Origin: an uncultured Actinomycetes bacterium
GTDB taxonomy: Bacteria; Actinomycetota; Thermoleophilia; Gaiellales; JAICJC01
Direction: 5' to 3'
Length of the DNA: 64,000 bases
NCBI GenBank assembly: GCA_963737445.1
Contig: CAVTSO010000013.1
Span: forward strand, 24,756-88,755
Shown here: piece by piece, positions 20,692-57,173 of the stretch
Position numbering within the stretch: the first letter of the stretch is position 1
Layout of the letters: every line of letters begins with the position of its first letter
The notes under the pieces: model-generated
Told to the model about the DNA's origin: nothing
Database searches by the model: none
What the model saw: only the letters and a program-made list of their open reading frames with translations
Program-made: the position numbers and the translations under genes

Positions 20692-21002
20692 GGCGGGCAC
20701 GACCGGCCCGCGGGCTGGGGACTGTCGGTGCCCGCCGCCAGCTTGAGCGTCGACGGCGTGGTCGTGGTAAGCCGCAGCGGCTGCGGAACGCACCCAGAGG
20801 ATCGAGCAGGTGCGCCTCGGCCCCACCAGCGGCCTCGTCGGCGGCTCGGCCGGTGTTCTGTACTTCGACGACTTCGTCTCCACCCGCACCGCCACCATCG
20901 GACCCTGACCGCAGCGATCGGGAGAACCGATCCCGCCCCGCTTCCGAATGGGCACGCAAACCGGCGGCAGATGCCGCCCGCAGCCCTCAGAAAGGGGTCA
21001 CG

Positions 21003-21791: not shown

Positions 21792-21852
21792 CCCCAGACG
21801 GTGCCGCGGCACGGAGCCTGACACCGTTCCGTGCCGCGGCCCGTCGTTTCGG

Positions 21853-33337: not shown

Positions 33338-33362
33338 TCGCCCTCTCCCTAAGATCTTGGTA

Positions 33363-33382
33363 TGTGGAACAATCGTTCCACA
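33363..33382. promoter_or_regulatory. palindrome TGTGGAAC-aatc-GTTCCACA in the 45-bp divergent region between MttB2 and the IclR gene (candidate IclR operator)
   Basis: Perfect 8-bp arms, read directly. It abuts or overlaps the IclR ATG (33382) and lies 26-45 bp upstream of the MttB2 ATG. Confidence 0.5.
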
Positions 33383-35707: not shown

Positions 35708-35725
35708 GAGCTGAAAGGATGCTGA

Positions 35726-36589
35726 ATGCAGACCACCATTGAGTCGCGGTCGCGCACGGTCGTGATCGGGGACGGCGCGCCGTTCTGCGTGATCGGCGAG
35801 CGCATCAACCCCACCGGCCGCAAGGCCTTCCAGGCGCAGCTGCAGGCCGGCGACCTGTCGCAGCTCGAGATCGACGTGGCCGAGCAGGTGGCCGGCGGCG
35901 CCGACGTGCTCGACGTCAACGTGGGCGATCCGCTGGCCGACGAGATCGAGCTGATGCGGGCTGCCGTGCCGATGGTGCAGGGCCTGACCGACCTGCCGCT
36001 GTGCATCGACTCCTCCATCATCGAGGCGCTCGAGGCCGGCCTCGGGGCGTACGAGGGCAAGGCGCTCGTCAACTCGGTCACCGGTGAGGACGAGCGGCTG
36101 AACCTGATCCTGCCGATCGTGGCCCGCCACGGCGCGGCGGTGATCGGCCTCGCCAACGACGACGAGATCCCGATGGAGCCGGAGCGCCGGCTGGAGGTGG
36201 CCCGCAAGATCGTCTCGGCCGCCGGCGACCACGGCATCCCGCCGCAGGACGTCGTGATCGACCCGCTGGCGATGCCGGTCGGCGCCGAGCCGCGCGCGGT
36301 CACGCTGTTCCTGGAGACGGTGCGGCTGATCCGCGACGACCTGGGCGTGAACATGACCTGCGGCGCCAGCAATACCTCGTTCGGGCTGCCCGGCCGCCAC
36401 ACCCTGGGCGCCGCCTTCCTGGCGGTCTCACAGAGCCACGGGTTGACCAGCGCCATCATGGACGCGCGCGCTCGCGAGTGCGTCGAGTCGGTGCGAGCCA
36501 CCGACTTCCTGCTCGGCCAGGACGAGTGGGGCGCGCGCTGGATCGCCGCGCACCGGGCCAAGCTGGCGGCGCAGGCCGCGACAAGCTAG
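35726..36589 (+). CDS. pterin-binding methyltransferase (methyl-corrinoid:tetrahydrofolate methyltransferase; MetH pterin domain/AcsE-like)
   Basis: VIGERINPTGRK...DVLDVNVG...LCIDSS...ALVNSV...GASNTSFGLP are typical DHPS-like pterin barrel motifs. Confidence 0.8.
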   Translation: MQTTIESRSRTVVIGDGAPFCVIGERINPTGRKAFQAQLQAGDLSQLEIDVAEQVAGGADVLDVNVGDPLADEIELMRAAVPMVQGLTDLPLCIDSSIIEALEAGLGAYEGKALVNSVTGEDERLNLILPIVARHGAAVIGLANDDEIPMEPERRLEVARKIVSAAGDHGIPPQDVVIDPLAMPVGAEPRAVTLFLETVRLIRDDLGVNMTCGASNTSFGLPGRHTLGAAFLAVSQSHGLTSAIMDARARECVESVRATDFLLGQDEWGARWIAAHRAKLAAQAATS

Positions 36590-36591
36590 CG

Positions 36592-38451
36592 GTGTCGGTG
36601 GACGCCGAGACGATCGAGCCAGGAACCGGACGCGTCCGGCTGACGTTCGCGCCCGACGGCGGCGAGGTGCGCGTCCCGGCCGGCACCACCGTGTTCGACG
36701 GGGCCAGCTGGAACGGCATCGCCATCGACTCGACCTGCGGCGGCCACGGCACCTGCAAGAAGTGCAAGGTGCGGATCACCGACGGCGAGGTGCCGGTCGA
36801 CACGCTGGATCCGCGCGCGTTCAGCCCCGACGAGCTGCGCGGCGGCTGGCGGCTGGCCTGCCGCGCGATCGCCACCCACGACCTCGCCGTCGAGGTGCCG
36901 CCGCTGCAGACCCGCCCCAAGGCGGCGCTGGTCGGCGTCGGCCGCCACGTGATCCTGCGCCCGTCCGTGCAGAAACGCTTCCTGGAGCTGGAGGAGCCGT
37001 CGCTCGAGGACCAAGCGGCCGACATGGAGCGCGTGGTGGATGCGGTCGAGGACTTCGAGCTGCGGGTTGAGCTGGGCGCCGCGCGCGGCATCGGCCGCAC
37101 CCTGCGGTCATCCAACTTCAAGGTCACCGCCGTCATCTGCGACGACGTGCTGATCGACGTCGAGCCCGGTGACACCACCGAGCGGCGCCACGCGATCGCC
37201 TTCGACCTGGGCACGACCACGGTGGTGGCGACGCTGCTCGACCTCGCCACGGGCCAGCCGCTGGCCGTGCGCTCGATGCTGAACCGCCAGCAGCCGTTCG
37301 GCGCGGACGTGATCTCGCGCGTCTCGGCCACGATGATGGACCCGGACGCGCTGGAGATGCTCCAGCAGCGGGCGCATGAGACGATGAACGGCCTCGCCGG
37401 CGAGGTCTGCGAGGAGGCCGGCCTGTCCCCGACGGAGGTGTACGAGATCGTGGTCTGCGGCAACGTCACGATGATGCAGCTGGCGCTGGGCATCGACCCC
37501 GAGCCGCTGGGCATGTCACCCTTCATCATCACCGCCCGGCGGCTGCCGCCGGCGGTTGCCTCCGACTTCGGCGTGCGCGTGCACCCGCGCGCGCCGGCCG
37601 CCGTGTTCCCGGCGCTGGGCGCCTACGTGGGCGGAGACATCGTCGCCGGCATGCTCGCCACCGGCCTCACCCGCGACCGCCGCGTGCGCCTGTTCATCGA
37701 CGTCGGCACCAACTCCGAGATCGCGCTCGGCTCGAGCGAGCGGGTGGTCGCAACTGCAGCGCCGGCCGGGCCCGCATTCGAGGCCGCCCAGATCCGCTGC
37801 GGCATGCGTGCCGCCGAGGGCGCGATCGAGGGCGTCGCGATCAGCGGCGAGGAGATGTCCCTTGAGGTGATCGGCGACGCCACGCCGGTCGGCATGTGCG
37901 GCTCCGGCCTGGTGGATGCCGTCGCCCAGCTGGTGGCGGCCGGCCTGCTCGACCACTCCGGCCGCTTCATCCCCGACGCCGCCGCCGCCGAGCTGCACCC
38001 GCAGCTGAGCACGCGTCTGGTGAAGGTGGGCGAGGAGCGGGTGTTCGTGCTGGCATGGCGCGGAGACGACCCCGCGAACTCGATCTACCTGTCGCAGCGC
38101 GACGTGCGCGAGCTGCAGTTCGCCAAGGCCTCGATCGCGACCGGCTGGCGGATCCTGATCAAGGAGCTCGGCCTCGGCGAGGACGAGATCACCCAGGTGC
38201 TGCTGGCGGGCAGCTTCGGCAGCTACCTGTCGCCTGCCAGCGCCGTGCGCATCGGCCTGGTGCCGAAGCTGGCGCTGCCGCGCATCATCTCGGCCGGGAA
38301 CGTGGCCGGTGAGGGCGCCAAGATGGCGGCGCTGTCGCTGCGGGAGCGGGCGGCGGCCGACGCGATTCTGGATGAGGTCGAGTACGTGGAGCTGTCCGGG
38401 CGGGCAGACTTCAACGACATGTTCATGGACGAGCTGGCGTTCCCGGGATGA
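36592..38451 (+). CDS. corrinoid reductive activase (RACo/RamA-like): 2Fe-2S ferredoxin domain plus ASKHA ATPase domain
   Basis: N-terminal [12 protein letters not shown] plant-type ferredoxin motif. ASKHA-like [11 protein letters not shown]...[12 protein letters not shown]...MCGSGL follows. The GTG start is 2 nt after the upstream stop. Confidence 0.8.
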
Positions 38452-39026
38452 CGACGGCCGTGATCGCATGCGGCGCGCTCGCCTTGCACGTGAACGCCAT
38501 CGCCGAGCGGCGCGGCTGGGAGATCGATGTGCACCCGCTGCCGCCGGAGCTGCACAACCGCCCGGAGCAGATCGCACCTGCCGTCGGCCGTCTGGTGGAC
38601 GAGCTGGCCGGCCGCTACCAGCGCGTGGCGGTCGCCTACGCCGACTGCGGCAGCTACGGAGCGCTCGACCACGAGCTCCGTCGCCGCGGCATCGAGCGGC
38701 TGGAGGGCGACCACTGCTACGACGTGTTCGGGAGGCCGGAGGTGGCCGAGGCGCTGGCCGAGCAGCCCGGCACCTACTTCCTGACCGATTTCCTGGCGCG
38801 CACCTTCGACCGCACGGTCTGGCGGTCGCTGGGCCTCGACCGGCATCCCGAGCTGCGCGACGACTACTTCCACTCCTACACCCGGGTGATCTGGCTGGCG
38901 CAGCGGCGAACGCCCGACCTGCTGGAGCTGGCCGAGCGGGCGGCCGCCATGCTGGGGCTGCCGCTGGAGGTGCGCGACGTGGGCGAGTCGGGGCTGGAGG
39001 CACAGCTGGAGCGCCTCGCGGCATGA
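38448..39026 (+). CDS. DUF1638 domain protein
   Basis: [11 protein letters not shown]...[11 protein letters not shown]...GDHCYDVF...YFLTDFLAR. Start and stop both overlap the neighbours (ATGA on both sides). Confidence 0.75.
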
Positions 39027-40153
39027 GCGACGCGACCTCGATGCGCGCGGCACTGCTGCCCGCTCCGGGCACGCCGCTGCGGGTGGTCGAGCTCGAGCTG
39101 GCCGCGCCCGGCCCCGGTGAGGTGCTGGTGCGTCTGCGCTCCAGCGGCGTCTGCCAGGACGACCTGAACCTGCTCGACGGCACGGTCGACGTGCCCGCCC
39201 CGGTCGTGCCCGGCCACGAGGGAGCCGGCGTCGTCGAGGCTCTGGGCGAGGGCGTGCAGGGGCTTGCGCCCGGCGATCACGTGGCGCTGTCCTGGGCCCC
39301 CTACTGCGGCAGGTGCGAGGAGTGCCTGCGCGATCTGCCGCACCTGTGCGGCACGGCCTGGCCGCTGATGCTGGGCGGCGGTCTGCTCGACGGCACCACC
39401 CGCCTCCGCTTCGGCGGGGCGGAGGTGCACCACTACTGCTTCCTGTCCACCTTCGCGGAGCGTGCGGTCGTGCCCGCCCGGTCGTGCGTCCAGATCCCCG
39501 CCGACGTGCCGTTCGAGGTGGCGGCGCTGCTCGGCTGTGCGGTGACGAGCGGCGTCGGCGCCGTCTGGCGCACCGCCGGCGTGCGGCCGGGCGAGCGGGT
39601 GGCGGTGATCGGTACCGGCGGCACCGGGCTCTCGGCTGTGATGGGCGCGGTCGCCTCGGGTGCGTCGCAGGTGATCGCCGTCGACCGCCGGCACGAGCGC
39701 CTCGAGCGCGCCCAGCAGCTCGGGGCCAGCGCCGTCGTGCAGTGGCAGGGTGAGCCGGAGCGGGTCGCCGAGGCGGTGGTGTCGGCCAGCGGCGGCGGCG
39801 TCGACTACGCCATCGACTGCACCGGACGGCCCGGTCCGATGCGGGCCGCGTTCCTGTCCACGCGCAAGCGGGGAGCCGCCGTGATGGCCGGCATCCCGCG
39901 CGCCGAGGCCGAGCTGACGGTGCCCGCGCGGTCGATCCCGCGGATGGAGCGACGGGTGCTGGGATCGATCTACGGGTCGGCCCGGCCCGACCGCGACTTC
40001 CCGCTGATCCTCGACGCCTACCGGCGCGGACGGCTGCCGCTCGACCGGCTGATCTCACACCGGCTGACCCTGGACGAAGTCGGCGCCGGCATCGACGCGG
40101 TGCGCTCGGGCGATGCCACGCGGGTGGTGCTCGACCTGGGAGGCGACGCGTGA
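39023..40153 (+). CDS. zinc-dependent alcohol dehydrogenase family (class III / formaldehyde dehydrogenase-like)
   Basis: GVCQDDL...[16 protein letters not shown]...CGRCEECL (structural Zn Cys cluster)...[12 protein letters not shown] (NAD fold). Confidence 0.8.
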
Positions 40154-40593
40154 GCGAGCCCGCGACCGGCGGCTGCCTGTGCGGCGCAGTGCGTTACGAG
40201 GTGCGGGGGCCGCTGCGCGACATCCTGATCTGCCACTGCGTCGAATGCCGGCGCTGGCACGGCAACGTTGCGGCCAGCACCGCGGCTGCCCGCGGCGATC
40301 TGGTCCTGACCGGGCAGCGCGGGCTGCGCTGGATCGCCGGCCCCGAGAGCGACGCGCACGCACGCCGGGGCTTCTGTGGCGAGTGTGGTTCCAGCCTGTT
40401 CTGGGACGCGCCTGGGCGTGACTACGTCGCGATCGCGGCCGGGTCGCTGGACGGCGAGACCGGGCTGCGCATCGCCGGCCACTGGTTCACCTCCCAGAAA
40501 GGCGACTGGTACGAGCTGCCCGACGATGGCCTGCCACACCACGAGCGCTCGGCCGCGGTCGAGGGCGGCTCGCCGAGTGGTAAAGTGATTTGA
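40150..40593 (+). CDS. GFA (glutathione-dependent formaldehyde-activating enzyme/CENP-V) family protein
   Basis: GGCLCGAVRYEV...CHCVECRRWHG...FCGECGSSLFW. The GTG overlaps the ADH stop (GTGA). Confidence 0.8.
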   Translation: MSEPATGGCLCGAVRYEVRGPLRDILICHCVECRRWHGNVAASTAAARGDLVLTGQRGLRWIAGPESDAHARRGFCGECGSSLFWDAPGRDYVAIAAGSLDGETGLRIAGHWFTSQKGDWYELPDDGLPHHERSAAVEGGSPSGKVI

Positions 40594-40599
40594 CGATAT

Positions 40600-41076
40600 A
40601 TGGAACAGGAGACGTCACAAGGGCGCTTCGCCGATGGCCTTGCAGAGCGCGAGCCGCTGGGCCCGCCGCTGATCGGGGCGCTGCTGCGCATGCCGGTCGA
40701 TGCCGTGCGGCGGCAGATGATCGAGCGGCTGCACGAGCACGGCTTCGCTGACATCGATCCGGCCCACCTGATCGTGCTGCGCTATCCCGGCCCGCAGGGT
40801 GAGCGCCCGTCCGATCTGGCCGCGCAGCTGGGCATGAGCAAGCAGGCGCTCAACTACCAGCTGGGGCAGCTCGAGCGGCGCGGCTACCTCGAGCGGCGTC
40901 CCGATCCTGAGGACATGCGTTCCCGGCGGATCGTGCTGACGCGGCGCGGCGTTGCCGCGGCCCACGTGATCCGTGACGCCGTGGCCGAGCTGGAGACCCT
41001 GTGGGAGCGGGAGCTGGGGGAGAAGCGCTACGCGCAGCTGCGCGGCCTGCTGGTCGAGCTGAATCGCGTGATCTAG
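40600..41076 (+). CDS. MarR family transcriptional regulator
   Basis: PSDLAAQLGMSKQALNYQLGQLERRGYLERRPDPEDMRSRRIVLTRRG. Confidence 0.85.
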   Translation: MEQETSQGRFADGLAEREPLGPPLIGALLRMPVDAVRRQMIERLHEHGFADIDPAHLIVLRYPGPQGERPSDLAAQLGMSKQALNYQLGQLERRGYLERRPDPEDMRSRRIVLTRRGVAAAHVIRDAVAELETLWERELGEKRYAQLRGLLVELNRVI

Positions 41077-41078
41077 CT

Positions 41079-41264
41079 GAGATGGTTGATCGGTTGTTCG
41101 CGAGCCTGGCCGCTGCGAACGGCTTGAAGTCGGAGGAGGCTGGGGTAGCTACGGCTGCGAACCGTCGTCTCCGTCCGCGATCTGCGTGATCGCAGATCGC
41201 TCATGACCGGCGCAAGGCGATGCCTTGCGCCTTGGACACCACGGAGATACCGATCAACCATCTC
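41079..41264. mobile_element. MITE-like 186-bp element, copy A: perfect 15-bp terminal inverted repeats and two internal 10-bp-stem hairpins
   Basis: The TIRs are GAGATGGTTGATCGG (41079-41093) and CCGATCAACCATCTC (41250-41264). The hairpins are GCGATCTGCG-tgat-CGCAGATCGC (41177-41200) and GGCGCAAGGC-gat-GCCTTGCGCC (41209-31). It carries no ORF. Confidence 0.6.
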
Positions 41265-43200
41265 GGTCGATCGACTCGGCCAGCAGTGTGGCCACGTCCG
41301 CCACCCGCAGCGTGCTGCCGCTGGTGCGGACGCCGTCGTCGAGCATCACGGTGCAGAACGGGCAGGCCACCGCCAGCGTCCCGGCGCCGGTCTCATCGGC
41401 CTGCCGCACCCGCTCCTCGTTGATGGCGCTGCCGCGCTCCTCCATCCACATGTGCGCGCCGCCGGCGCCGCAGCAGAACGTGCGCTTGCCGCTGCGCTCC
41501 ATCTCGACCGGCGTGCCCACCGCCGCCACCAGCTGCCGCGGATCCGCCGTCACGTCGTTGTGGCGCGCGAGGTAGCAGGAGTCGTGGTAGGTGATCTGGG
41601 TGTCCCCCGCCTTCGGCTCGATCCGGCCGTCGCGGACCAGCTCGGCCAGCAGCTCGGTGTGGTGCATCACCTCGTAGCGGCCGCCGAAGTCCGGGTACTC
41701 GTTGGCCAGCGTGTTGAAGCAGTGCGGGCAGCTGGCCACGATCTTCGTCACCCCTGAGCCGTTCAGCGTCTCGACGTTCTGCTCCGCGAAGGCCTGGAAC
41801 ACGTACTCGTTTCCCATCCGCCGGGCCGGGTCGCCGGTGCACGACTCGCGCGGGCCCAGGATCGCGAAGTCGACCCCGGCCGCCTGCAAGAGCTTTGCCG
41901 TCGACACCGCCGTCTGCCGGGCGCGCTCGTCGAACGAGGCGGCGCAGCCGACCCAGTAGAGCACCTCGGGCGCCGGGTCGCCCGGCTCGAGCACCGTCAC
42001 GCCCAGCCCCTGCGTCCAGTCGCCGCGCTCCTGCTGGGCCTTGCCCCAGGGGTTGGACGATCGCTCGACGTCCCGCAGCATCGGCTCGGCCTCCGCCGGG
42101 AACCGCGCCTCGGCCATCACCAGGTGGCGGCGCAGGTCGACGATGTGGTCGATGTGCTCGATCGAGACCGGGCACTCGTGGACGCAGGCGCCGCACGTGA
42201 CGCAGTCCCAGACCACGTCGTCGGTGACCGCGTTTGGCACCAGCGGCGGCGGATCGGCTCCCTCGGCACCGGAGAGCAGCTTCGGGCCCTGGTCGAGCAG
42301 GTGATCGCGCAGTCCCATGATCAGCAGCTTGGGCGACAGCTCCTTGCCGGTCGCATAGGCCGGGCAGACGTCCTGGCAGCGACCGCACTCGGTGCAGGTT
42401 GCGGTGTCCACCATCTGCTTCCAGGTCATGTCGGTGAGCGTGCCGGAGCCGAGCCGGATCTCGTCCTCCGGCACCTCCGGGTCGTCGAACACGAGCGGCT
42501 CGAGACGGCCGCGTGCGCGCGTTCGCCCGAAGAACACATTGACCACGGCGGTAATGATGTGCAGGTGCTTCGAGTAGGGCAGGTACGCCAGGAAGCTCAG
42601 GATCAGCAGCACGTGCGTCCACACGAACACGCGCTCGAGCACCTTCGTGCCATCGCCGCCGCCGAACAGGTTGGAGAGCGCGTTTGCGACCGGAGACCAC
42701 GACGCCGGCCACTCGTTCAGCCCCAGCGCGATCCGCGTGGCGTGCCACAGGAGCAGGGTGGTGACGATGCCCGCGATCAGGGCCAGGATGAAGTCGGCCT
42801 CGCCCATGTGGCTGCCCTCGAACCGCGCCGGCCGCTGCACCTTGCGGATGAAGAACGCCGCGCACACGCTCAGCAGCACCAGCAGCGCGAACAGGTCGAC
42901 CAGGAACGCGAACCAGCCCTGGTGGCCGAGCCAGGGCAACGTCGCGTCGCGATCGACGGCCGCGATCATCGCCATGATGATGGTCGGGAACAGCACGATG
43001 AATCCCCAGAAGATCAGCGCGTGCATCACCCCCGGGCCCAGCCGCTGCAGCAGCTTGCGCTGGCCGATCGCGACCACCGCCTCCTGGCGCAGGCGCTGCG
43101 GCACATCGTCGAACCTGGGCGCGGGCCTGCCGAGGCGCATGATCCGGACGAGCAGCCGGGCGCGACGGGCGAAGATGCCGCCGGCCACCGCCAGCGCCAC
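41254..43200 (-). CDS. membrane-anchored Fe-S oxidoreductase (EtfD/DgcB-like; heterodisulfide-reductase-related with CCG domains)
   Basis: N-terminal TM helices, two ferredoxin motifs (CTECGRCQDVCP, CVTCGACVHECP) and two CCG-type Cys-rich domains (..WVGCAAS.., ..TFCCGAGG..). The start is uncertain; I took GTG 43200. The tracked ORF's extension to 43500 overlaps etfA. Confidence 0.8.
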   Translation of the reverse strand: MALAVAGGIFARRARLLVRIMRLGRPAPRFDDVPQRLRQEAVVAIGQRKLLQRLGPGVMHALIFWGFIVLFPTIIMAMIAAVDRDATLPWLGHQGWFAFLVDLFALLVLLSVCAAFFIRKVQRPARFEGSHMGEADFILALIAGIVTTLLLWHATRIALGLNEWPASWSPVANALSNLFGGGDGTKVLERVFVWTHVLLILSFLAYLPYSKHLHIITAVVNVFFGRTRARGRLEPLVFDDPEVPEDEIRLGSGTLTDMTWKQMVDTATCTECGRCQDVCPAYATGKELSPKLLIMGLRDHLLDQGPKLLSGAEGADPPPLVPNAVTDDVVWDCVTCGACVHECPVSIEHIDHIVDLRRHLVMAEARFPAEAEPMLRDVERSSNPWGKAQQERGDWTQGLGVTVLEPGDPAPEVLYWVGCAASFDERARQTAVSTAKLLQAAGVDFAILGPRESCTGDPARRMGNEYVFQAFAEQNVETLNGSGVTKIVASCPHCFNTLANEYPDFGGRYEVMHHTELLAELVRDGRIEPKAGDTQITYHDSCYLARHNDVTADPRQLVAAVGTPVEMERSGKRTFCCGAGGAHMWMEERGSAINEERVRQADETGAGTLAVACPFCTVMLDDGVRTSGSTLRVADVATLLAESIDRDG

Positions 43201-43226
43201 CAGCAGCGCGATCAGGGCGACGGGCT

Positions 43227-44195
43227 CTATCCGGCGCCCGCCTTGCGCAGTTCGGCCGTGATCGCCGGGATCACCTCGTGCAGGTCGCCGATCACGGCGT
43301 AGTCGGCGTTGGCGATGATCGGCGCCTCCGGATCGACGTTGACCGCGATGATCCGCTTGGCGCCCTTGCAGCCGGCCATGTGCTGGGTGGCGCCGCTGAT
43401 GCCGCAGGCCAGGTACACCTCCGGCGCGATCTTGGTGCCGGTCTGACCGACCTGGTCGGTGTGCGACCGCCAGCCGGCGATAGTGACGGCCCGCGAGCAC
43501 CCGACGGCTCCGCCCAGCAGCGCCGCCAGCTCCTCGGCCGGTGCGAAGCCCTCCGGAGAGCCGGCGCCGCGCCCGCAGCTGACCACGAACTTGGCGTCCG
43601 CCAGGTTGACCCCGCCCTCGCTGCTCTGCTGCACGGTCTCGACCACCCGCACCACCAGGTCGGCTTCGCCCAGCGACGGCGAGAAGCGCTCGACGGCCGC
43701 CGGCGCACCGCCCACCTCGGCCGCCTCGACCGTGTGCGGCGCCACCGTCAGCAGCTTGACGGGGCCGTGCAGGCGCGCGTCCTCGAGCAGGCTGCCGCCC
43801 CAGCGGATGCGGGTCACGGTCAACGGGTCGCCCGCCTCTGCGGCGATGCAGTTCGCGGCCAGCGGCAGGTCGCCGATCGCCGCCGCGTGCGCCAGCACCT
43901 CGTTTCCGCGCTCGCTGCCGGCGGCCGCCACGGCCGACGGGGACAGCCGCTCGATCAGCTCGCCGATGCAGCGTGCCAATGCCACGGGCGCATGGGTGGC
44001 GAGCACCTCGTGGTCGGCGATGTGCGCGGTCGCCACCCCGTGGGCGCCCAGCGCGGCGGCGGCGTGCTCGGCGCCGGGACCGGCCAGCAGCGCGTGCAGC
44101 GGTGCGCCGCCGGCGATCTCACGGGTCAGTGCGATCGCCTGCAACGAGGCGTCGTCGGGCCGGCCGTCCTGATGCTCGACGTAGACCAGCGTCAT
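43227..44195 (-). CDS. etfA: electron transfer flavoprotein alpha subunit
   Basis: C-terminal FAD-binding signature ..VVSCGRGAG...GCSRAV...DQVGQTGTKIAPEVYLACGISGATQHMAG... The ATG overlaps the etfB stop (ATGA). Confidence 0.9.
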   Translation of the reverse strand: MTLVYVEHQDGRPDDASLQAIALTREIAGGAPLHALLAGPGAEHAAAALGAHGVATAHIADHEVLATHAPVALARCIGELIERLSPSAVAAAGSERGNEVLAHAAAIGDLPLAANCIAAEAGDPLTVTRIRWGGSLLEDARLHGPVKLLTVAPHTVEAAEVGGAPAAVERFSPSLGEADLVVRVVETVQQSSEGGVNLADAKFVVSCGRGAGSPEGFAPAEELAALLGGAVGCSRAVTIAGWRSHTDQVGQTGTKIAPEVYLACGISGATQHMAGCKGAKRIIAVNVDPEAPIIANADYAVIGDLHEVIPAITAELRKAGAG

Positions 44196-44956
44196 GCCAC
44201 CAGCCCCGCACGGCGCAGCACCTCGACGACCGCCGGCGCAGCTTCGGGCCCGTGGCCCAGGATCTCCGCCTGCTTGCCCTGCCCGGGTGGCAGCCGCAGC
44301 CGCAGCTTCTCGACGCCGGGCTCGCGGCCCGCCGGAGCGATCGTGGCCAGGGGCTTGCGCTTGGCCCGCAGCCGGCCGGGCACCGACGGATAGCGGGGCA
44401 GGTTGAGGCCCTCCTTGACGGTGACCACCGCCGGCAGCGGCACGTCGTAGACGTCGCGGCCGGAGGCCGTCTCCTGCTCGCAGCGGGCGCGGCCGTCCTG
44501 CACCGTGATGCCCTTGACGCCGGTCACGCAGGGCTGCCCCAGGGCGTGGGCGACGCGGATGCCGATCTGGTAGTTGCCGGAGTCGGCCGACTCGTTGCCG
44601 AAGAAGATCAGGTCGAACTCGACGCCGGCGGCCCGCTCGGCCTCGATCGCGGCGACGATCGCCGCGGCCGTGGCCTGGCCATCGAACTCGTCGGCCGTCT
44701 CGAGCAGGCTCGCGCGGTCGATGCCGAGCGCCATCGCGTCGCGGAGCTGCTCCTCGGCCTCGGACGGGCCCAGCGCCAGCACCACGGACTCGCCGCCGTT
44801 CGCCTCGATCAGCCGAACCGCCTCCTCGACGCCGCACTCCTCATGAGGGCTGATGGTGAAGCCGAGGTGGCGCGTCTGGATCGATTGCTCGTCGTCGGTC
44901 AGCACGATCGTGCCGCCGGTCATCGGCACCCGCTTGGCGCAGACGAGGATGTTCAC
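44192..44956 (-). CDS. etfB: electron transfer flavoprotein beta subunit
   Basis: VNILVCAKRVP...ISPHEECGVEEAVRL...DLIFFGNESADSGNYQIG...LNLPRYPS. The GTG overlaps the upstream stop (GTGA). Confidence 0.9.
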   Translation of the reverse strand: MNILVCAKRVPMTGGTIVLTDDEQSIQTRHLGFTISPHEECGVEEAVRLIEANGGESVVLALGPSEAEEQLRDAMALGIDRASLLETADEFDGQATAAAIVAAIEAERAAGVEFDLIFFGNESADSGNYQIGIRVAHALGQPCVTGVKGITVQDGRARCEQETASGRDVYDVPLPAVVTVKEGLNLPRYPSVPGRLRAKRKPLATIAPAGREPGVEKLRLRLPPGQGKQAEILGHGPEAAPAVVEVLRRAGLVA

Positions 44957-47472
44957 GACCGGATCCGCTCGTTCTCGGGGTCGAAGATCGGCGTCGAGCC
45001 TGCCACCGCGACCGTCACCGGGTAGCGCTCGTTCAGGTACTCCACGGCCAGCTCGGTGCCGACCTGCGCCTGCTCCGGCGGCAGGTAGGCCATCAGCAGG
45101 TGCTTGCCGACCGACGGCCCGGCGCCGGCGCTGGTCACGTACGACCGCCGGCCCCTGCTGTCGGTGAGCGGCTGTCCGTCGCGGGTCTGGATCGGCTCGC
45201 GGCCCAGCATGTACCGCTGCACCCCAGAGGTCGATGTGTGGTTGTCGACGGTCAGCGTGGACATGATCGTGGCCGGCTCCTGGTCGCGGTGCCGCAGGTG
45301 GGCCTGCTTGCCGACGAAGTCCTCGTCCTTCACCTTCGGCCCGGCCATGCCGGCCTCGCACACGTTGTATTCGCTCTCCAGCTCGAAGCCGTAGGCGCGA
45401 TAGCACTTCTCGAGCCGCCCGGTGGTGCCGTAGACGCCGATCCCGACCGGCGCGATGCCGTGCGGCCGGCCGGCCTCCGCGATCACGTCCCACAGCTTCT
45501 GGCCCTGCTCGATCGGCACGTACAGCTCCCAGCCGAGGTCGCCCACGTAGGAGATGCGCGAGGCCAGCACCCGCAGCGTGTCGATCTCGATCGTCCGGCA
45601 GCTGCCGAAGCGAAAGCCCTCGTGGGAGACGTCGTCGCGGGTCACCGAGCTCAGGATGTCACGCGCACGCGGCCCCCAGAGGCCGAGCGTCGTCCACGCC
45701 GAAGTAAGGTCGGCGATCTGGGCGGTACCGTCCTGCGGCAGGCGGTCGGCGAACCACTTGCGGTCGGCGGGCCCGTGGGCGCCGCCGGTGACGACCCGGA
45801 ACAGCTCGTCGTCCAGCCGCATGATCGTGAGGTCGGCCTTGAAGCCGCCGCCCGGCGTCAGCACCGGCGTGTAGACGACCCGGCCGATCGGCACGTCCAT
45901 CTGCCGCACCGCCACGCCCTGCACCGCCTCGAGCGCGCCCGGGCCGGCGACGTCGAAGATGGTGAATGCGGACAGGTCGACCATGCCGGCGCGGTCGCGC
46001 ATCGCCAGGTGCTCGGCGTTGATGATCGGAGACCACCAGCGCGCGTCCCACTCGGCCTCGCGCGGGTTGATGCGGTCGGCGTACTCCTCGAGCAGCGGCG
46101 CGTTCGACTCGTACCAGTGCGGCCGTTCCCAGCCTGCGGCCTCGAAGAAGACGGCGTCCAGCTCCTTCTGGCGGGCGTGGAAGGGCGGCAGGCGGACGTC
46201 GCGGTTGGAGGCCCACTGCTCCGACGGGTGGATGATGCCGTAGGTCTTGTTGAAGCCCTCCGAGGTGCGGGCGCGGACGTGGGCGCGGGTCTTCTGGTGG
46301 TCCCAGAAGCGGGCGATATCCGACGAGTGCAGGTCGATCTCCGACTCGCCGTGCGTCATCCACTCGGCCACCGCCTTGGCGATGCCCGGCCCCTCCTTCA
46401 CCCACACGGCCGCGCACGACCAGAGGCCGCGCACCTCGTGCGTCTCGCCCAGGAGCGGCATCCCGTCCGGCGTCAGCGACAGCAGGCCGTTGATCGCGTA
46501 CTTCACGCCCACGCTCTCGTCGCCGACGATCTCGGGCATCAGCTCCAGCGCGTCCTCCATCTGCTTGTCGAAGTCGGCCTGCGTGAAGGGCAGCTCGGTG
46601 GGCGACAGGGCGGCCTGCTCGATGGACGGGATCTCCTCCGGATCGTGCAGGATCGGCCGGTGCGCGTATGAGCCGATCTCGAGGCCGATGCCGTCCTGGC
46701 GCTCGTACATGAAGGTGTCCATGTCGCGCACGATCGGGTACTCGATGTGGCGCGTGGAGCGGGCGAAGCGCGGCACCGGCCCGATGTCGATCATCTGGTG
46801 GACGGCCGGGGTGAGCGGGATCAAGGCGCCGGCCATGTGCGCGATCGCCGGGCTCCAGACGCCGCAGGCGACGACCACGACCTCGGTCTCGATGTCGCCG
46901 CGGGTGGTGCGCACCCGGCGCACACGGCCGCGCTCGACGTCGATGCCGAGCAGCTCGGTGTTGGCCGAGATCGTGAGCGCGCCCGCAGCGACGGCCCGCT
47001 CGCGCATGATCGTACCTGCCCGCAGCGAGTCGACCACGCCCACGCCCGGCGAGCAGAACCCGCCCAGCAGGATCGTCTCGTCGATGAACGGCACCATCTC
47101 CTTGATCTCGGCCGGCGTCACCATCGAGACGCGGTCGATCCCCCAGGCGTGGGCCGACGACATGCGCCGGTGCAGCTCCTGCATGCGCTCCTCCGTGCGG
47201 GCCACCTCGATGCCGCCGCTCTCGGTGAACACGTCGAGGTCCTGATACTGGCGCACGCTGTCGAGCGTCAGCGCCGTCATCTCCTTGGAGTGGTCGACCG
47301 GGAAGATGAAGTTGGATGCGTGGCCGGTTGAGCCGCCGGGGTTGGGGAACGGGCCCTTGTCGAGCAGCACCAGGTCGCGCCAGCCCAGCTCGGACAGGTG
47401 GTAGGAGATGCTGTTTCCGACGATGCCGGCGCCGATCACGACGGCGCGGGCAGATGTGGGCAGATCGCTCAT
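44953..47472 (-). CDS. dimethylglycine/sarcosine dehydrogenase family protein (DAO FAD domain plus GcvT folate-binding aminomethyltransferase domain)
   Basis: 839 aa. VVIGAGIVGNSISYHL dinucleotide fold, GSTGHASNF (the position of the covalent-FAD His in this family) and a C-terminal GcvT-like domain. Confidence 0.9.
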   Translation of the reverse strand: MSDLPTSARAVVIGAGIVGNSISYHLSELGWRDLVLLDKGPFPNPGGSTGHASNFIFPVDHSKEMTALTLDSVRQYQDLDVFTESGGIEVARTEERMQELHRRMSSAHAWGIDRVSMVTPAEIKEMVPFIDETILLGGFCSPGVGVVDSLRAGTIMRERAVAAGALTISANTELLGIDVERGRVRRVRTTRGDIETEVVVVACGVWSPAIAHMAGALIPLTPAVHQMIDIGPVPRFARSTRHIEYPIVRDMDTFMYERQDGIGLEIGSYAHRPILHDPEEIPSIEQAALSPTELPFTQADFDKQMEDALELMPEIVGDESVGVKYAINGLLSLTPDGMPLLGETHEVRGLWSCAAVWVKEGPGIAKAVAEWMTHGESEIDLHSSDIARFWDHQKTRAHVRARTSEGFNKTYGIIHPSEQWASNRDVRLPPFHARQKELDAVFFEAAGWERPHWYESNAPLLEEYADRINPREAEWDARWWSPIINAEHLAMRDRAGMVDLSAFTIFDVAGPGALEAVQGVAVRQMDVPIGRVVYTPVLTPGGGFKADLTIMRLDDELFRVVTGGAHGPADRKWFADRLPQDGTAQIADLTSAWTTLGLWGPRARDILSSVTRDDVSHEGFRFGSCRTIEIDTLRVLASRISYVGDLGWELYVPIEQGQKLWDVIAEAGRPHGIAPVGIGVYGTTGRLEKCYRAYGFELESEYNVCEAGMAGPKVKDEDFVGKQAHLRHRDQEPATIMSTLTVDNHTSTSGVQRYMLGREPIQTRDGQPLTDSRGRRSYVTSAGAGPSVGKHLLMAYLPPEQAQVGTELAVEYLNERYPVTVAVAGSTPIFDPENERIRS

Positions 47473-47520
47473 GTGGTCTCTCCCGCGCAGGTGCGCGTGG
47501 GGGGTTGCCGGGAGGGCTCC

Positions 47521-47549
47521 GGTCTGGTAGACAACTCATATATCAGACC
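47521..47549. promoter_or_regulatory. nested palindromes GGTCTG...CAGACC and GTCT-ggt-AGAC immediately upstream of the GntR gene (candidate GntR operator)
   Basis: Read directly. It lies in the 78-bp divergent region between the DMGDH-family gene and the GntR gene and contains a GT-N-AC type core. Confidence 0.4.
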
Positions 47550-47550
47550 C

Positions 47551-48195
47551 ATGCAGACCCTGCAACTTCCCACTGAGCTGCTCTCCGAACGCGCCTATGC
47601 GGCCCTGCGCGACCGGCTGGTGTCGCTCGAGATCCCGCCCGGCGCGCCGATCGACGAGGAGGCACTGACCGGGCAGCTGGGCGTCGGGCGCACGCCCGTC
47701 CGTGAGGCGATCCGGCGCCTCGCGCTGGAGCGGCTGGTGGTCGTCTACCCGCGCCGCGGCACCTTCGCCGCGACCATCAACATCACCAGCCTGACCGACA
47801 TCACCGACGTGCGCGTGCAGCTCGAGGCGCGCGCCGCCGAGCGCGCCGCGACGCTGGCCGACGCCGACGACCGCCGCGAGGCCGGCGACCTGATCGCAAA
47901 GCTGGACGCGGCCGAGTCCGGCCAGCGGCGGCTGATCGAGCTGGACGCGGAGGTGCACCGGTTCGTCTACCGCTGCTCCCGCAACCCGTACCTGGAGCAG
48001 GATCTCGATCGCTACCTGAACATGTCGCTGCGGATCTGGCACCTCACCTGGGACCGGCTGCCGCCGTTGGAGCAGCGGATGCGGGAGCACGGCGAGCTGC
48101 TGGAAGCGATCCGGCAGGGCGACCCAGAGCGGGCGCGCGAGATCGCAGCGGCGCACGTGCTGGCGTTCGCCGAGGAGATGCGGGCGGCGCTGTGA
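47551..48195 (+). CDS. GntR family (FadR/FCD subfamily) transcriptional regulator
   Basis: N-terminal wHTH (LTGQLGVGRTPVREAIRRLALERLV) and an all-helical FCD-like C-terminal domain. Confidence 0.85.
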   Translation: MQTLQLPTELLSERAYAALRDRLVSLEIPPGAPIDEEALTGQLGVGRTPVREAIRRLALERLVVVYPRRGTFAATINITSLTDITDVRVQLEARAAERAATLADADDRREAGDLIAKLDAAESGQRRLIELDAEVHRFVYRCSRNPYLEQDLDRYLNMSLRIWHLTWDRLPPLEQRMREHGELLEAIRQGDPERAREIAAAHVLAFAEEMRAAL

Positions 48196-49088
48196 CGCTG
48201 CAGGCGGCACCGGACAGCTGGCTTCCCGGCCGCACGCTGTTCCTCAAGCGCGAGGACGGCCACGAGCTGGGCGCGTTCAAGTGGCGGGGTGCGCTGCCGG
48301 CCGTCGAGCAGTACCGCGAGCAGGGCCACGCATCCGTGGTCACCGCCTCGACCGGCAACCACGGCGCCGCCACCGCCTGGGCCGCTGCCCGGAACGGCAT
48401 GACCGCCGTGGTGTTCGTGCCCGAGCAGGCGAGCGCCGCGAAGCTGGAGCTGCTGCGCGGCCTCGGCGCCGAGCTGGTGGTGTGCGGCGCCGACCTGGAC
48501 GAGGCCAAGGCGGCGGGGATCGAACACGCCGGGGCGCAGAAGCTGCCGTTCTTCCAGGACGGCGCGGAGCCCGCCCAGTACGAAGGCTACGGCGACATCG
48601 CGGACGAGATCCTGGCCGAGGTGACGCCGGGTGCGGTGCTGGTGCCTGTGGGAAACGGCGCGCTGCTGGCTGGGATCGGCCTGCGACTGGGCGCGCGGTC
48701 GCCGGCCACGCGGCGGATCGGGGTGGTTGCCGCCGGTGCGCCGGTGATGGCGCGCAGCTTCGACGCAGGCCACGTGGTGGAGTCGTCGCACAGCGACACG
48801 TTTGCGGACGGCATGGCCGTGCGGGTGGCGATCCCCGTCGCCGTGGACGCGCTGGCGACGGCCGCCGACGAGATGGCCGAGGTCACCGATCGCGAAATCG
48901 CCGAGGCGGTGGGAGCGTTCGCGGAGGCCGGCATGCGCGTCGAGGGCTCCGCGGCGGCCGCCCTGGCGGGCGCGCGCCGGCTGGATGGTCGGCTGGAGGG
49001 CGTCGTCGTCCTGATCGTGACCGGGCGCAACATCGACGACCACCTGTGGCAGCGCGCGGTCGAGCGGCCCGAGAGCTTTCCCGGCTGA
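48192..49088 (+). CDS. PLP-dependent enzyme of the tryptophan-synthase-beta fold (serine/threonine dehydratase-like)
   Basis: PLP-lysine motif GAFKWRGA, followed by TASTGNHG. The GTG overlaps the GntR stop (GTGA). Confidence 0.8.
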   Translation: MTLQAAPDSWLPGRTLFLKREDGHELGAFKWRGALPAVEQYREQGHASVVTASTGNHGAATAWAAARNGMTAVVFVPEQASAAKLELLRGLGAELVVCGADLDEAKAAGIEHAGAQKLPFFQDGAEPAQYEGYGDIADEILAEVTPGAVLVPVGNGALLAGIGLRLGARSPATRRIGVVAAGAPVMARSFDAGHVVESSHSDTFADGMAVRVAIPVAVDALATAADEMAEVTDREIAEAVGAFAEAGMRVEGSAAAALAGARRLDGRLEGVVVLIVTGRNIDDHLWQRAVERPESFPG

Positions 49089-49117
49089 TCGTCCCCGGGC
49101 CCTGCTAGCGTCGCCGC

Positions 49118-49777
49118 ATGAGAGTCGGTTCGGCAGGCGTGGTCGTGGTGCTGCTGGCTCTCCTGAGCGCGTGCGGTGGTGGGTCGTCGGCCGGCGACCG
49201 CGTGGCCGCCTGCCAGCAACGGTATCGGGGCGGCCTGACCGACACCCCGGCCGCCCACCACGCCGTGTCCGAACTGTGCACGCAGGCCGAGCAGGCCGGC
49301 CTGCTGGACGACCACGGCGCGACGACGGCCGACCAGCTGCGCACGCTGTTGAAGTCCCATCCGGATGCGCTGTCCCCGCTCTGCCAGCTGAGCCTGCAGG
49401 CGAGCCTCGGCGCCGACACGGCGGCGGCTGCGCGCTACCTGCCGCCGGGCGGCGTCCACGCCCTCACGGCGAAGGCTTGCCAGAACCTCGGCCCCTTCCT
49501 GACCGACGACGGGCTCGACCAGCACGCGCTGTTCCGCGCCCGCGGGCGAGGGGTGCTGGTGCCGGTGTGCGTGGCCGGCTCGCTGGCGTCGCCCCACAAC
49601 CAATCGCTGCCCTACAGCGAGGCCGACACGCGCAAGCTGCTGACGCGCATCTGCCGGCAGGCCTGGTCGCACGGGTTGCTGCACGCCGACGGGTCGGTCG
49701 ACTCGGCCGCACTGGCCGCGCTGGGCACGAAGATCAGCCGCCAGATGCTGGCGTCCGGCCAGATCACCCCTCAGTAG
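49118..49777 (+). CDS. hypothetical lipoprotein
   Basis: Signal peptide with lipobox VVLLALLSAC. No family recognised. Confidence 0.55.
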   Translation: MRVGSAGVVVVLLALLSACGGGSSAGDRVAACQQRYRGGLTDTPAAHHAVSELCTQAEQAGLLDDHGATTADQLRTLLKSHPDALSPLCQLSLQASLGADTAAAARYLPPGGVHALTAKACQNLGPFLTDDGLDQHALFRARGRGVLVPVCVAGSLASPHNQSLPYSEADTRKLLTRICRQAWSHGLLHADGSVDSAALAALGTKISRQMLASGQITPQ

Positions 49778-57126: not shown

Positions 57127-57173
57127 TGCGCCCCCATAATACGGTCGCACCGAGTCCACGAGGAGGAGCAGCG

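Follow-up and report, generated by a model that had tools for sequence, protein, structure and literature searches.

Gene Content and Organization of the Locus

The window (the whole stretch of 64,000 nucleotides that was analyzed) comes from a soil bacterium of the actinobacterial order Gaiellales. A dehydrogenase gene, etfB, etfA, and a gene encoding a membrane Fe-S/CCG protein lie on the minus strand, divergent from a gntR-PLP enzyme gene pair (Table 1), and each feature of this arrangement is present at the coordinates originally given. The genes are tightly packed: the etfB GTG start shares GTGA with the dehydrogenase stop, the etfA ATG start shares ATGA with the etfB stop, and the GTG start of the PLP gene shares GTGA with the gntR stop. 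Because no sigma-70-like promoter or intrinsic terminator was detected in the region 41000-49300, the transcription units are proposed from these overlaps only. None of the six proteins reached an NCBIfam equivalog cutoff.

Table 1. Features of the dehydrogenase-ETF-EtfD locus and the divergent gene pair.
Feature	Position	Strand	Description
Dehydrogenase, 839 aa	44953..47472	-	DAO+FAO_M+GCV_T+GCV_T_C (Pfam)
etfB, 254 aa	44192..44956	-	Pfam ETF; PDB matches to ETF beta subunits
etfA, 322 aa	43227..44195	-	Pfam ETF + ETF_alpha; PDB matches to ETF alpha subunits
EtfD-type membrane protein (predicted)	41254..43230	-	Pfam Fer4 dicluster + 2x CCG
ATAG junction etfA/EtfD	43227..43230	-	etfA TAG stop overlapping in-frame ATA codon
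Divergent promoter/operator region, 78 bp	47473..47550	.	Between dehydrogenase and gntR
Conserved putative operator, 25 nt	47523..47547	-	TCTGATATATGAGTTGTCTACCAGA, consensus TCTGATATATCAGTTGTCTACCAGA
FadR-subfamily GntR regulator, 214 aa	47551..48195	+	Pfam GntR wHTH + FCD
Fold-type II PLP enzyme, 298 aa	48192..49088	+	Pfam PALP

The Dehydrogenase and Its Likely Substrate

Homology identifies the 839-aa protein as an FAD- and folate-dependent N-methyl amino acid dehydrogenase of the DMGDH/DMGO family. Its best solved match is the dimethylglycine (DMG) oxidase of Arthrobacter globiformis (AgDMGO, 1pj5; E = 3e-161, 37% identity), with which it shares the same four domains and the catalytic residues over the full length, while human and rat DMGDH match at E ~1e-87. 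The flavinylation His (H51) is conserved, as are the equivalents of His225, Tyr259, and Asp552, so that both the His/Tyr dyad named for DMGDH (PMC5082570) and the folate-site Asp are retained. Two positions past the flavinylated His, the window enzyme has Ser, AgDMGO has Pro, and mammalian DMGDH has Ala. Augustin et al. included a Pro among the residues they named as oxidase-type, and we infer that it corresponds to this position.

At 37% identity to the DMG oxidase, DMG and sarcosine are inseparable as substrates from sequence alone. A nearby MtgB-like MttB protein matches the glycine betaine methyltransferases 2qne and 9yce (E = 1e-121), and neighboring genes encode an MtgC-like corrinoid protein, a pterin methyltransferase, RACo, a class-III ADH, and GFA. 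With MtgB-, MtgC-, MtgD-, and MtgE-like homologues and RACo beside the operon, the window resembles the cobalamin-dependent MtgBCD(E) demethylation systems, although these were described in Proteobacteria, whereas the present genes belong to Thermoleophilia and adjoin an ETF/EtfD-linked dehydrogenase. This neighborhood points to DMG as the substrate and fits the glycine-betaine pathway through MtgBCD reported for aerobic bacteria, in which genes for the later demethylations are often co-located (PMC12478193).

It is unlikely, though a serious possibility, that the same wiring serves a different substrate, which may be sarcosine or some other N-methylated amine or amino acid, for instance whatever the second MttB paralogue of the window produces. 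The DAO+GcvT family also covers other N-methyl substrates, for example that of sarcosine dehydrogenase, and the matches to AgDMGO (37% identity) and mammalian DMGDH (E ~1e-87) are only distant. Two cassette copies occur in some metagenome-assembled genomes (MAGs; loci L029 and L038, isolate BP_543), suggesting paralogues with different substrates. Two MttB paralogues lie within the window; moreover, docking failed to separate DMG from sarcosine even for human DMGDH (PMC5082570). We nevertheless favor DMG, since glycine betaine methyltransferases are the nearest matches of the adjoining MttB, and MtgC that of the corrinoid protein, which would make DMG the local product. In addition, a separate MSOX/MTOX-like oxidase (57054-58340) could take sarcosine, and at other loci the cassette lies beside GMC oxidoreductase, aldehyde dehydrogenase, OpuAC, and MTHFR genes, a choline/betaine context.

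An EtfD-Type Membrane Protein

The Fe-S/CCG protein is predicted to be an EtfD-type membrane ETF:menaquinone oxidoreductase. It aligns with the cryo-EM structure of Mycobacterium smegmatis EtfD (9ojn) at 43.5% identity over 635 residues (E = 1e-143), spanning the whole ordered part of that protein, membrane domain included. Five hydrophobic TM segments lie in its first 215 residues and none past residue 260. The haem, quinone-site, and Fe-S ligands listed for EtfD by Courbon et al. (2026) are identical in the window protein and invariant in 12 homologues: His78/His241, Arg137/150/306, and Phe85/230; the cubane ligands of D4 (C301/304/307/422) and D3 (C311/412/415/418); the D1 ligands C503/538/581/584 with Thr539, a linear [3Fe-4S] motif; and the D2 ligands C637/672/673/709/712 with His583. 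The original prediction of a membrane-anchored protein of the Rv0338c/MSMEG_0690 type, rather than a soluble GlcF/LutA-type enzyme, is therefore borne out, as GlcF scores only about 26 bits.

It is scarcely credible that the protein is not an ETF:quinone oxidoreductase but an enzyme of the HdrD, GlpC, or GlcF type with a disulfide or a hydroxy-acid as its substrate. The weak NCBIfam similarities to TfrB, LdhH, GlpC, HdrB, and GlcF arise via shared Fer4/CCG domains and all fall far under the cutoffs, whereas the EtfD match is full-length and includes the membrane domain; the equivalents of Thr539 and His583, residues rendering EtfD clusters D1 and D2 non-catalytic, are kept, and the gene is invariably linked to etfBA.

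Like mycobacterial EtfD (Rv0338c/MSMEG_0690; Beites, 2021; Courbon, 2026), the predicted EtfD combines a haem-b domain of five TM segments with two cubane [4Fe-4S] clusters and a pair of CCG domains bearing the D1 (linear [3Fe-4S]) and D2 (noncubane [4Fe-4S]) ligand sets, and it is likewise proposed to act as an ETF:menaquinone oxidoreductase. However, it lacks the 348-400 loop and the disordered C-terminal region (about 13-30 kDa), which docks ETF in an AlphaFold3 model of the mycobacterial protein (Courbon et al., 2026). Its gene, moreover, shares an operon with an etfBA pair of its own and a gene for an amine dehydrogenase, whereas mycobacterial EtfD stands alone and serves beta-oxidation. 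A similar ETF-to-menaquinone role was proposed for a membrane Fe-S oxidoreductase of Syntrophomonas wolfei (PMC5101538), a likeness by description; unlike the window system, the EtfAB:menaquinone oxidoreductases of syntrophs belong to anaerobes and function in acyl-CoA oxidation and in reverse electron transfer.

The earlier comparison with Pseudomonas DgcB stands only in part. For the breakdown of dimethylglycine, Pseudomonas aeruginosa has a DgcAB system with adjacent EtfAB (Wargo, 2008, cited in PMC13083937), which likewise links a DMG-demethylating enzyme to ETF genes and an EtfD-homologous Fe-S/CCG protein. The Fe-S/CCG homology holds, but DgcB, compared by description, reportedly lacks the D1-cluster cysteines (Courbon et al., 2026) that the window protein has, and DgcA is an OYE/FMN-type enzyme, whereas the window dehydrogenase is a DAO+GcvT flavoprotein of the mammalian/Arthrobacter type.

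A Probable Near-Cognate Start Codon for EtfD

The gap of about 26 nt originally assigned between etfA and the Fe-S gene is probably unreal, as the EtfD frame is conserved as coding from the ATA codon 43230-43228. In contrast to mycobacterial EtfD, translation probably starts at this near-cognate codon, which overlaps the etfA stop (ATAG) and would be reached by termination-reinitiation, giving 658 aa and translational coupling. A start at GTG 43200, 26 nt past the etfA stop, would give 648 aa and leave the conserved upstream codons untranslated, which we consider rather doubtful. This GTG is the first canonical start past the etfA stop, downstream starts are picked by gene callers, and AUA is a very poor initiator in E. 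coli; on non-canonical starts, a review cites Hecht et al. (2017). Yet in 56 distinct related loci the junction is ATAG or ATAA and keeps a constant distance of 19-20 codons to the conserved FARR that follows, and the aligned position reads GTGA or CTGA in relatives. No canonical start precedes FARR in 18 loci, three of which lack any canonical start upstream as well, and in 12 of these 18 an in-frame stop lies 12-45 codons upstream with no canonical start between. Third-codon-position entropy exceeds the values at positions 1 and 2 by a factor of ~1.7-2, indicating coding constraint from ATA onwards, and the 10 extra residues complete TM1, which aligns with the M. smegmatis EtfD N-terminus.

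Conservation of the Cassette and Proposed Electron Flow

Among the 66 Thermoleophilia genome loci with enough upstream DNA, the DMGDH-EtfB-EtfA-EtfD cassette is complete in 65, and it is likewise complete on metagenome contigs; the clade relatives are MAGs throughout. This constant linkage of EtfD to the DMGDH-family enzyme and etfBA supports the predicted wire from dehydrogenase to ETF, EtfD, and quinone. It does not appear dedicated to the island, as had been proposed: MttB/corrinoid genes lie within 10 kb in only 15 of the 66 loci, and the cassette is better described as an autonomous module.

Since the nearest characterized homologue is an oxidase of 37% identity, ETF dependence and DMG specificity are proposed on the basis of synteny and context. 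AgDMGO uses O2, whereas the gene for the window enzyme is firmly tied to ETF genes. The enzyme might itself be a DMGO-like oxidase, as its closest solved relative is, with ETF-EtfD a mere neighbor serving other dehydrogenases such as the TMADH homologue at 26098-28194 (E = 6e-218 to 1djn); TMADH is a classical ETF client. This is quite improbable given that start/stop overlaps join dehydrogenase, etfB, etfA, and etfD, that the four genes remain together in nearly all loci, mostly without a TMADH or MttB neighbor, and that Ser replaces the AgDMGO-type Pro at the position as we placed it.

Most likely, the operon oxidizes a methylated glycine and delivers the electrons through its own ETF and membrane EtfD to the respiratory quinone pool. 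The 839-aa enzyme, with its covalent FAD and GcvT-type folate domain, would oxidize an N-methyl amino acid, tertiary or secondary, with dimethylglycine the likeliest substrate and sarcosine a possible further one, and pass the methyl carbon to tetrahydrofolate, giving 5,10-methylene-THF. The reduced FAD would be re-oxidized by the co-encoded EtfBA heterodimer, and ETF by the co-encoded EtfD, in which electrons may run from the CCG-domain clusters (linear [3Fe-4S] and noncubane [4Fe-4S]) to the two cubane [4Fe-4S] clusters, a bis-His-ligated haem b, and menaquinone in the membrane. The mammalian chain from DMGDH via ETF to ETF-QO likewise pairs a dehydrogenase of this family, which has covalent FAD and links methyl transfer to folate, with ETF as the carrier that feeds the quinone pool (PMC5082570); here, however, the membrane acceptor would be EtfD, which is non-homologous to ETF-QO, and all components are encoded in one operon. 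Overall, these are known parts in a well-supported yet largely expected combination.

For EtfB and EtfA, matches to human or Paracoccus ETF score slightly below those to ETFs of the bifurcating type (CarDE, 5ol2, 7koe). The TMADH homologue constitutes a second likely ETF client in the island of the window.

The GntR Regulator and Its Putative Operator

The intergenic region contains the palindromes GGTCTG (47521-47526)...CAGACC (47544-47549) and GTCTGGTAGAC (47522-47532), and the 25-nt putative operator consists of a 14-bp palindrome and a GTCT-N3-AGAC repeat. Among relatives, only this block and an SD-like GGGAGAG ahead of the dehydrogenase ATG are conserved in the intergenic region. The 25-nt element occurs once per locus in 20 loci with an orthologous divergent GntR, as well as once in the window, and was not found elsewhere in 1.59 Mb at ≤5 mismatches. 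Of the 66 loci, 52 have its core, TGATATATCA, no more than 200 nt ahead of the dehydrogenase, and across the class this core precedes GntR genes 37 times; the window contains a single site. In 17 genome loci, a GntR orthologue (68-97% identity) sits beside the cassette in divergent orientation. The anticipated regulatory link to GntR is thus strongly supported by the conserved putative operator, and because gene order is kept in 65/66 loci and the palindrome block forms a phylogenetic footprint, the arrangement is beyond chance.

The gntR ATG is 3 nt from the operator edge. As the sole AT-rich element between the two genes, the operator probably overlaps the -10 elements. By binding this site, the GntR protein would repress the operon together with its own gntR-PLP transcript, and some pathway metabolite would release it. 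We regard it as probable that a single operon, translationally coupled and repressed by GntR, unites the four genes of the minus strand and serves as a self-contained respiratory branch for oxidative N-demethylation.

The PLP Enzyme

The PLP enzyme belongs, by its best PDB matches (threonine deaminases and serine racemases), to the threonine/serine dehydratase or racemase family; every NCBIfam match is under cutoff. It had been suggested as a functional partner of the pathway, but an orthologue is present in only 5 of the 66 loci, all nearest relatives, and we consider it an accessory gene. An SDR gene takes its place in two loci (L002 and L003).

Gene Organization of the Operon

Homology, conserved ligands, synteny and a regulatory footprint together lend good support to the proposed electron path of this operon, in which electrons from N-methyl oxidation would pass to ETF, then to an EtfD-type protein and on to the quinone pool, with a GntR protein in control. 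In this respect the original prediction of an electron wire to the quinone pool is supported. Mammalian DMGDH-ETF, Pseudomonas DgcAB-EtfAB and mycobacterial ETF-EtfD already supply every part and the overall logic. The points of note are a tail-less EtfD with a D1 cluster and a private ETF, a class-wide operator, and a probable AUA start codon.

Features of the operon and its surroundings in the window
Feature	Position	Strand	Evidence or remark
Dehydrogenase, 839 aa	44953-47472	-	Pfam DAO, FAO_M, GCV_T, GCV_T_C
etfB	44192-44956	-	Pfam ETF domain PF01012; PDB matches to ETF subunits
etfA	43227-44195	-	Pfam ETF PF01012 and C-terminal FAD-binding ETF_alpha PF00766; PDB matches
ATAG junction	43227-43230	-	etfA stop over in-frame EtfD ATA; recurs in related loci (L007-L086)
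Fe-S/CCG protein (EtfD)	41254-43200	-	From first canonical start; 4Fe-4S dicluster domain, two CCG domains
Operator block	47523-47547		25 nt
gntR	47551-48195	+	FadR subfamily; N-terminal GntR winged HTH PF00392 and C-terminal FCD PF07729
PALP-fold (PLP) gene	48192-49088	+	Start overlaps gntR stop (GTGA)
219-aa protein	49118-49777	+	Lipoprotein-like signal peptide (…LLSACGGG…); no Pfam match
MtgBCD(E)-like set	29404-30465; 31898-33337; 33331-41076	+; -; +	Adjoins operon; BHMT/MtgE-like homocysteine S-methyltransferase, MtgB-like MttB, IclR, MtgC-like corrinoid protein, pterin-binding (methyl-THF:corrinoid) methyltransferase, RACo, DUF1638, class-III Zn-ADH, GFA, MarR
293-aa ORF	34826-35707		No Pfam match
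Second MttB-family methyltransferase	24653-26098	+	E 8e-113 to 4yyc, 4e-103 to a glycine betaine methyltransferase
TMADH homolog, 698 aa	26098-28194	+	E 6e-218 to 1djn; ATG overlaps MttB TGA (TGATG)
Monomeric sarcosine oxidase/N-methyltryptophan oxidase (MSOX/MTOX) family protein	57054-58340	+	NCBIfam NF008425, 308 bits vs. cutoff 257
tRNA-Glu	18690-18763	-	
tRNA-Lys	19088-19160	+	

The GTGA and ATGA start/stop overlaps that join the dehydrogenase, etfB and etfA genes, the GTGA overlap of the GntR/FCD gene with the PALP-fold gene, and the palindromes in the 78-bp divergent region were all found in the sequence as claimed. Matches of the ETF subunits and the GntR protein to PF01012, PF00766, PF00392 and PF07729 were above threshold, and the ETF subunits scored closely against bifurcating-type CarDE (170/93 bits) and the canonical human (141/82) and Paracoccus (126/91) proteins in the PDB. 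NCBIfam gave an equivalog-level name to none of the six operon and divergent proteins. Promoter and terminator scans of 41000-49300 found neither, with no consensus promoter; the transcription start sites and the end of the operon are therefore putative. An Rfam scan of the whole window returned only two tRNAs, and no cobalamin, glycine or THF riboswitch near the neighboring island. The window has a G+C content of about 70%, and the nearest relatives of its proteins are without exception from MAGs labeled Gaiellales/Thermoleophilia. At 10000-14000 and 20000-22000 the G+C content is 0.66-0.67 vs. about 0.71, with a weaker GC3 signal and several ORFs without Pfam matches; these two stretches flank the tRNA genes.

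An EtfD-Type Protein With a Complete Set of Cofactor Ligands

The Fe-S protein is of the EtfD/Rv0338c type, as originally predicted, judging from its structural match, its ligands and its TM segments. A search of PDB sequences gave one strong match (E 1e-143), to 9ojn, the 2026 cryo-EM structure of EtfD from M. smegmatis, an orthologue of M. tuberculosis Rv0338c, and this match covers residues 12-747, the whole ordered part of 9ojn, at 43.5% identity. The cofactor ligands of EtfD have been listed by Courbon et al., and in our alignment all of them are identical in the window EtfD and invariant across 12 homologs. In the membrane domain, which aligns to 9ojn residues 12-342, these include H70 and H224 (heme b ligands His78 and His241 in 9ojn), R129, R136 and R284 (heme-propionate Arg137, Arg150 and Arg306), and F77 and F213 (Phe85 and Phe230 of the menaquinone site). 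Two CxxCxxCxxxC motifs (C279/282/285/289 and C343/346/349/353) for the cubane [4Fe-4S] clusters D3 and D4 are likewise invariant, and Fer4_8, Fer4_9 and Fer4_10 were matched in Pfam. The CCG domains retain both the ligands of the linear [3Fe-4S] cluster D1 (9ojn Cys503/538/581/584 and the diagnostic Thr539) and those of the noncubane cluster D2 (Cys637/672/673/709/712 and His583), with C429, C464-T465, C501-P-H503-C504, C552, C586-C587 and C623/C626 all conserved in the window protein.

Hydropathy peaks at residues 3-21, 64-89, 110-128, 147-165 and 197-215 place five TM segments within the first 215 residues, and the same scan detected none after residue 260. The protein also stands apart from the soluble GlcF/LutA type, as it scored far under the cutoffs of the NCBIfam GlcF, GlpC and HdrB models. 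The likeness to DgcB in Fe-S/CCG make-up that had been pointed out does not extend to the D1 cysteines, which are reported to be absent in DgcB and FadF (PMC13083937) but present here. Moreover, DgcB pairs with the OYE-type DgcA, whereas the neighbor of the window EtfD is etfA, with no dgcA-like gene.

Unlike mycobacterial EtfD, the window protein lacks the C-terminal disordered region: it stops two residues past the match to 9ojn residue 747, whereas 9ojn runs to 1042, and the best 120 homologs are each about 590-770 aa long. This region varies among mycobacteria and is absent in FadF and DgcB, and so is not strictly defining. An AlphaFold3 model suggests that it touches ETF in mycobacterial EtfD (Courbon et al., PMC13083937), and the ETF docking site and the accepting cluster were left open by Courbon et al. 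A tail-less EtfD that keeps the linear [3Fe-4S] site would dock its dedicated ETF directly on the CCG domains, and together with the co-encoded ETF it could serve as a compact system for locating the docking site and the electron-accepting cluster.

A Conserved, Autonomous Cassette in Thermoleophilia

Scanning one genome per species turned up 587 EtfD relatives, of which the best 80 are all from Thermoleophilia MAGs save two, probably mis-binned. Sixty-six loci had upstream DNA of sufficient length, and 65 of them hold the complete co-directional dehydrogenase-etfB-etfA-etfD arrangement; in the remaining one the dehydrogenase match is split. Metagenome contigs have the same arrangement. From this linkage to etfBA, the window EtfD is a putative ETF oxidase and menaquinone reductase.

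The neighbors of the cassette vary. MttB/corrinoid/RACo genes lie nearby in 15 loci, and companions in other loci include a GMC oxidoreductase, a free-standing GcvT, MTHFR, OpuAC and aldehyde dehydrogenase. The cassette is therefore an autonomous module in one-carbon and betaine contexts rather than, as the original prediction had it, one dedicated to the island. The structural definition of EtfD dates from 2025-26 and concerns mycobacterial beta-oxidation alone; here an EtfD type that includes the unusual linear [3Fe-4S] site is firmly tied to its own ETF and to an amine dehydrogenase throughout a whole class, and EtfD appears to be a general ETF:menaquinone link in abundant, uncultured soil actinobacteria.

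Two related loci labeled Myxococcales (L016) and Burkholderiaceae (L032) carry cassettes 78-80% identical to those of Thermoleophilia, and their contigs are probably mis-binned. Two other loci (L029 and L038) belong to the same MAG isolate, BP_543, which has two whole cassettes, one of them adjoining an MttB/corrinoid cluster; these may be paralogous modules with different substrates.

The Dehydrogenase and Its Metabolic Context

All four Pfam domains of the dehydrogenase exceed their gathering thresholds, and its best solved relative is the Arthrobacter dimethylglycine (DMG) oxidase AgDMGO (1pj5), matched over its full length at 37% identity (E 3e-161), with mammalian DMGDH at E of about 1e-87. 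The flavinylation histidine H51, for 8-alpha-N3-histidyl FAD, aligns to AgDMGO His48 and to the human/rat STWHAAG motif. The folate-site aspartate, Asp552 of AgDMGO, is conserved as well, in an alignment of ‘GGFKADLT’ with ‘GGVRSDIT’. The catalytic His/Tyr dyad, documented in PMC5082570 (and its ref. 23), is conserved in alignment with AgDMGO His225 and Tyr259. Two residues past the flavinylated histidine the protein has Ser, in place of Pro in AgDMGO and Ala in the dehydrogenases, a weak pointer that stays weak given that the oxygen ‘gatekeeper’ residues are unnumbered in the text of that paper. The protein is a putative DMG dehydrogenase with ETF rather than O2 as its acceptor; its sequence would suit DMG or sarcosine, and an oxidase or a dehydrogenase. 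The case for ETF dependence is at its strongest on genetic grounds.

The MttB-family protein beside the operon matches the glycine betaine methyltransferases 2qne and 9yce at E 1e-121, vs. 1e-34 for a true TMA methyltransferase. Its island matches the MtgBCD(E) route of aerobic Proteobacteria, in which genes for the later demethylations are often co-located (PMC12478193), and on this analogy DMG is the most likely putative substrate of the dehydrogenase. Only two island neighbors reached an NCBIfam cutoff: the MSOX/MTOX-like oxidase and, with the domain model NF005719, the pterin-binding methyltransferase. Together, the operon and the adjacent cobalamin-dependent MtgB-like system outline how Thermoleophilia may respire the methyl groups of glycine betaine. 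The sarcosine step could fall to the MSOX/MTOX-like protein, a candidate whose gene lies some 8 kb past the PLP gene.

TMADH, a close homolog of which is encoded in the window, is a classical ETF-dependent enzyme. Both amine dehydrogenases lie near a gene for an MttB-type quaternary-amine methyltransferase, and the ETF-EtfD pair may here serve two tertiary-amine dehydrogenases, one DMGDH-type and one TMADH-type.

A Probable AUA Start Codon of EtfD

The gap of about 26 nt originally read between etfA and etfD is put in doubt by the conserved junction, which makes an ATA codon overlapping the etfA stop the likelier start. The annotated N-termini of EtfD homologs are ragged. In 56 distinct loci an ATA codon aligned in the EtfD frame overlaps the etfA TAG or TAA stop (ATAG/ATAA), at a constant 19-20 codons before the conserved FARR; other relatives have GTGA or CTGA at the aligned position. 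Eighteen of these loci lack any ATG, GTG or TTG between ATA and FARR. Going upstream, 12 loci reach an in-frame stop after 12-45 codons without passing a canonical start, and three of the 12 have no canonical start on either side. The stretch from ATA to FARR appears to be coding, with a third codon position about 1.7-2 times more variable than positions 1 and 2, and its peptide corresponds to the first TM helix (TM1), in alignment with the N-terminal end of EtfD from M. smegmatis.

Translation of EtfD by reinitiation at AUA in a -4 overlap is the most economical reading of these junctions, and one that we consider likely; all four genes would then be joined by 4-nt overlaps. A frameshift fusion of EtfA and EtfD was rejected, since there is no slippery site and the two genes are distinct in relatives, where they meet at ATGA/GTGA-type junctions or across small gaps. 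Under AUA reinitiation, EtfD in most Thermoleophilia would be made only by termination-reinitiation at a near-cognate AUA over the etfA UAG stop, which perhaps sets a low EtfD:ETF ratio. Two papers on translational coupling list ATGA and GTGA -4 overlaps and do not mention ATAG; if the reading is true, the ATAG overlap would exemplify, in nature and in phylogenetically fixed form, a coupling that uses a non-canonical start. Gene callers clip TM1 of EtfD at such junctions, and present annotation would, if the AUA start is real, cut it short in most genomes. The joint reading, in which EtfD is made via AUA reinitiation only, is tail-less and docks a private ETF, and forms an electron sink shared by two amine dehydrogenases, seems to us slightly better than an even bet. 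Two CTGA junctions in the window (24605 and 26095) were rejected as extra non-canonical starts, as canonical ATGs lie just downstream.

A Conserved Operator and the Divergent Genes

A regulatory link to the GntR protein, as had been proposed, is supported by a palindromic element kept at the dehydrogenase and GntR promoters. When the divergent intergenic regions of loci with GntR proteins 68-97% identical were aligned, a 25-nt block, TCTGATATATCAGTTGTCTACCAGA, was nearly invariant while the rest of the region diverged. The window copy has one mismatch, and at up to five mismatches the block occurs once in each of those 20 loci and in the window, with no further copy in 1.59 Mb. In 52 of 66 loci the palindromic core of the block, TGATATATCA, is found within the 200 nt preceding the dehydrogenase. 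Counted over all loci, 53 copies precede the dehydrogenase, 37 precede GntR genes (more distant GntR paralogs placed downstream among them) and 68 lie elsewhere.

In the window the operator is a single site, ending 3 nt before the gntR ATG, and half-site searches for more copies in the window gave only chance-level matches. It is the only AT-rich stretch of the divergent region, and by our inference the -10 elements of the two divergent promoters overlap with it. The conserved palindrome has the look of an autoregulated GntR regulon. For the putative binding of GntR to this operator, and its release by a ligand, the evidence is indirect but strong. The operator also provides a handle for regulon reconstruction, by way of the motif CTGATATATCAG and its 68 further sites in related loci. 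Many of the 68 further copies of TGATATATCA are perfect (e.g., L020:4496, L022:4922 and L027:4885, among loci L018-L086), and they often lie directly upstream of the gene preceding the dehydrogenase, a hint that the GntR regulon is larger.

The PLP protein, a putative fold-type II enzyme of the threonine/serine dehydratase and serine racemase kind, has a PALP domain (E 2e-64) and, as AFKWRG, the Schiff-base lysine motif S/A-F-K-x-R-G, and every NCBIfam model scored below its cutoff (best 173 vs. 317). It is about 20 residues shorter at the N-terminus than the family models, with no earlier canonical start in frame. Its gene is conserved only in the nearest relatives (five loci), and in contigs of 85% identity the position is occupied by an SDR; the suggestion that the enzyme removes the end product finds no support as part of the system. 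In the nearest relatives, the 219-aa lipoprotein-like gene is kept together with the PLP gene.
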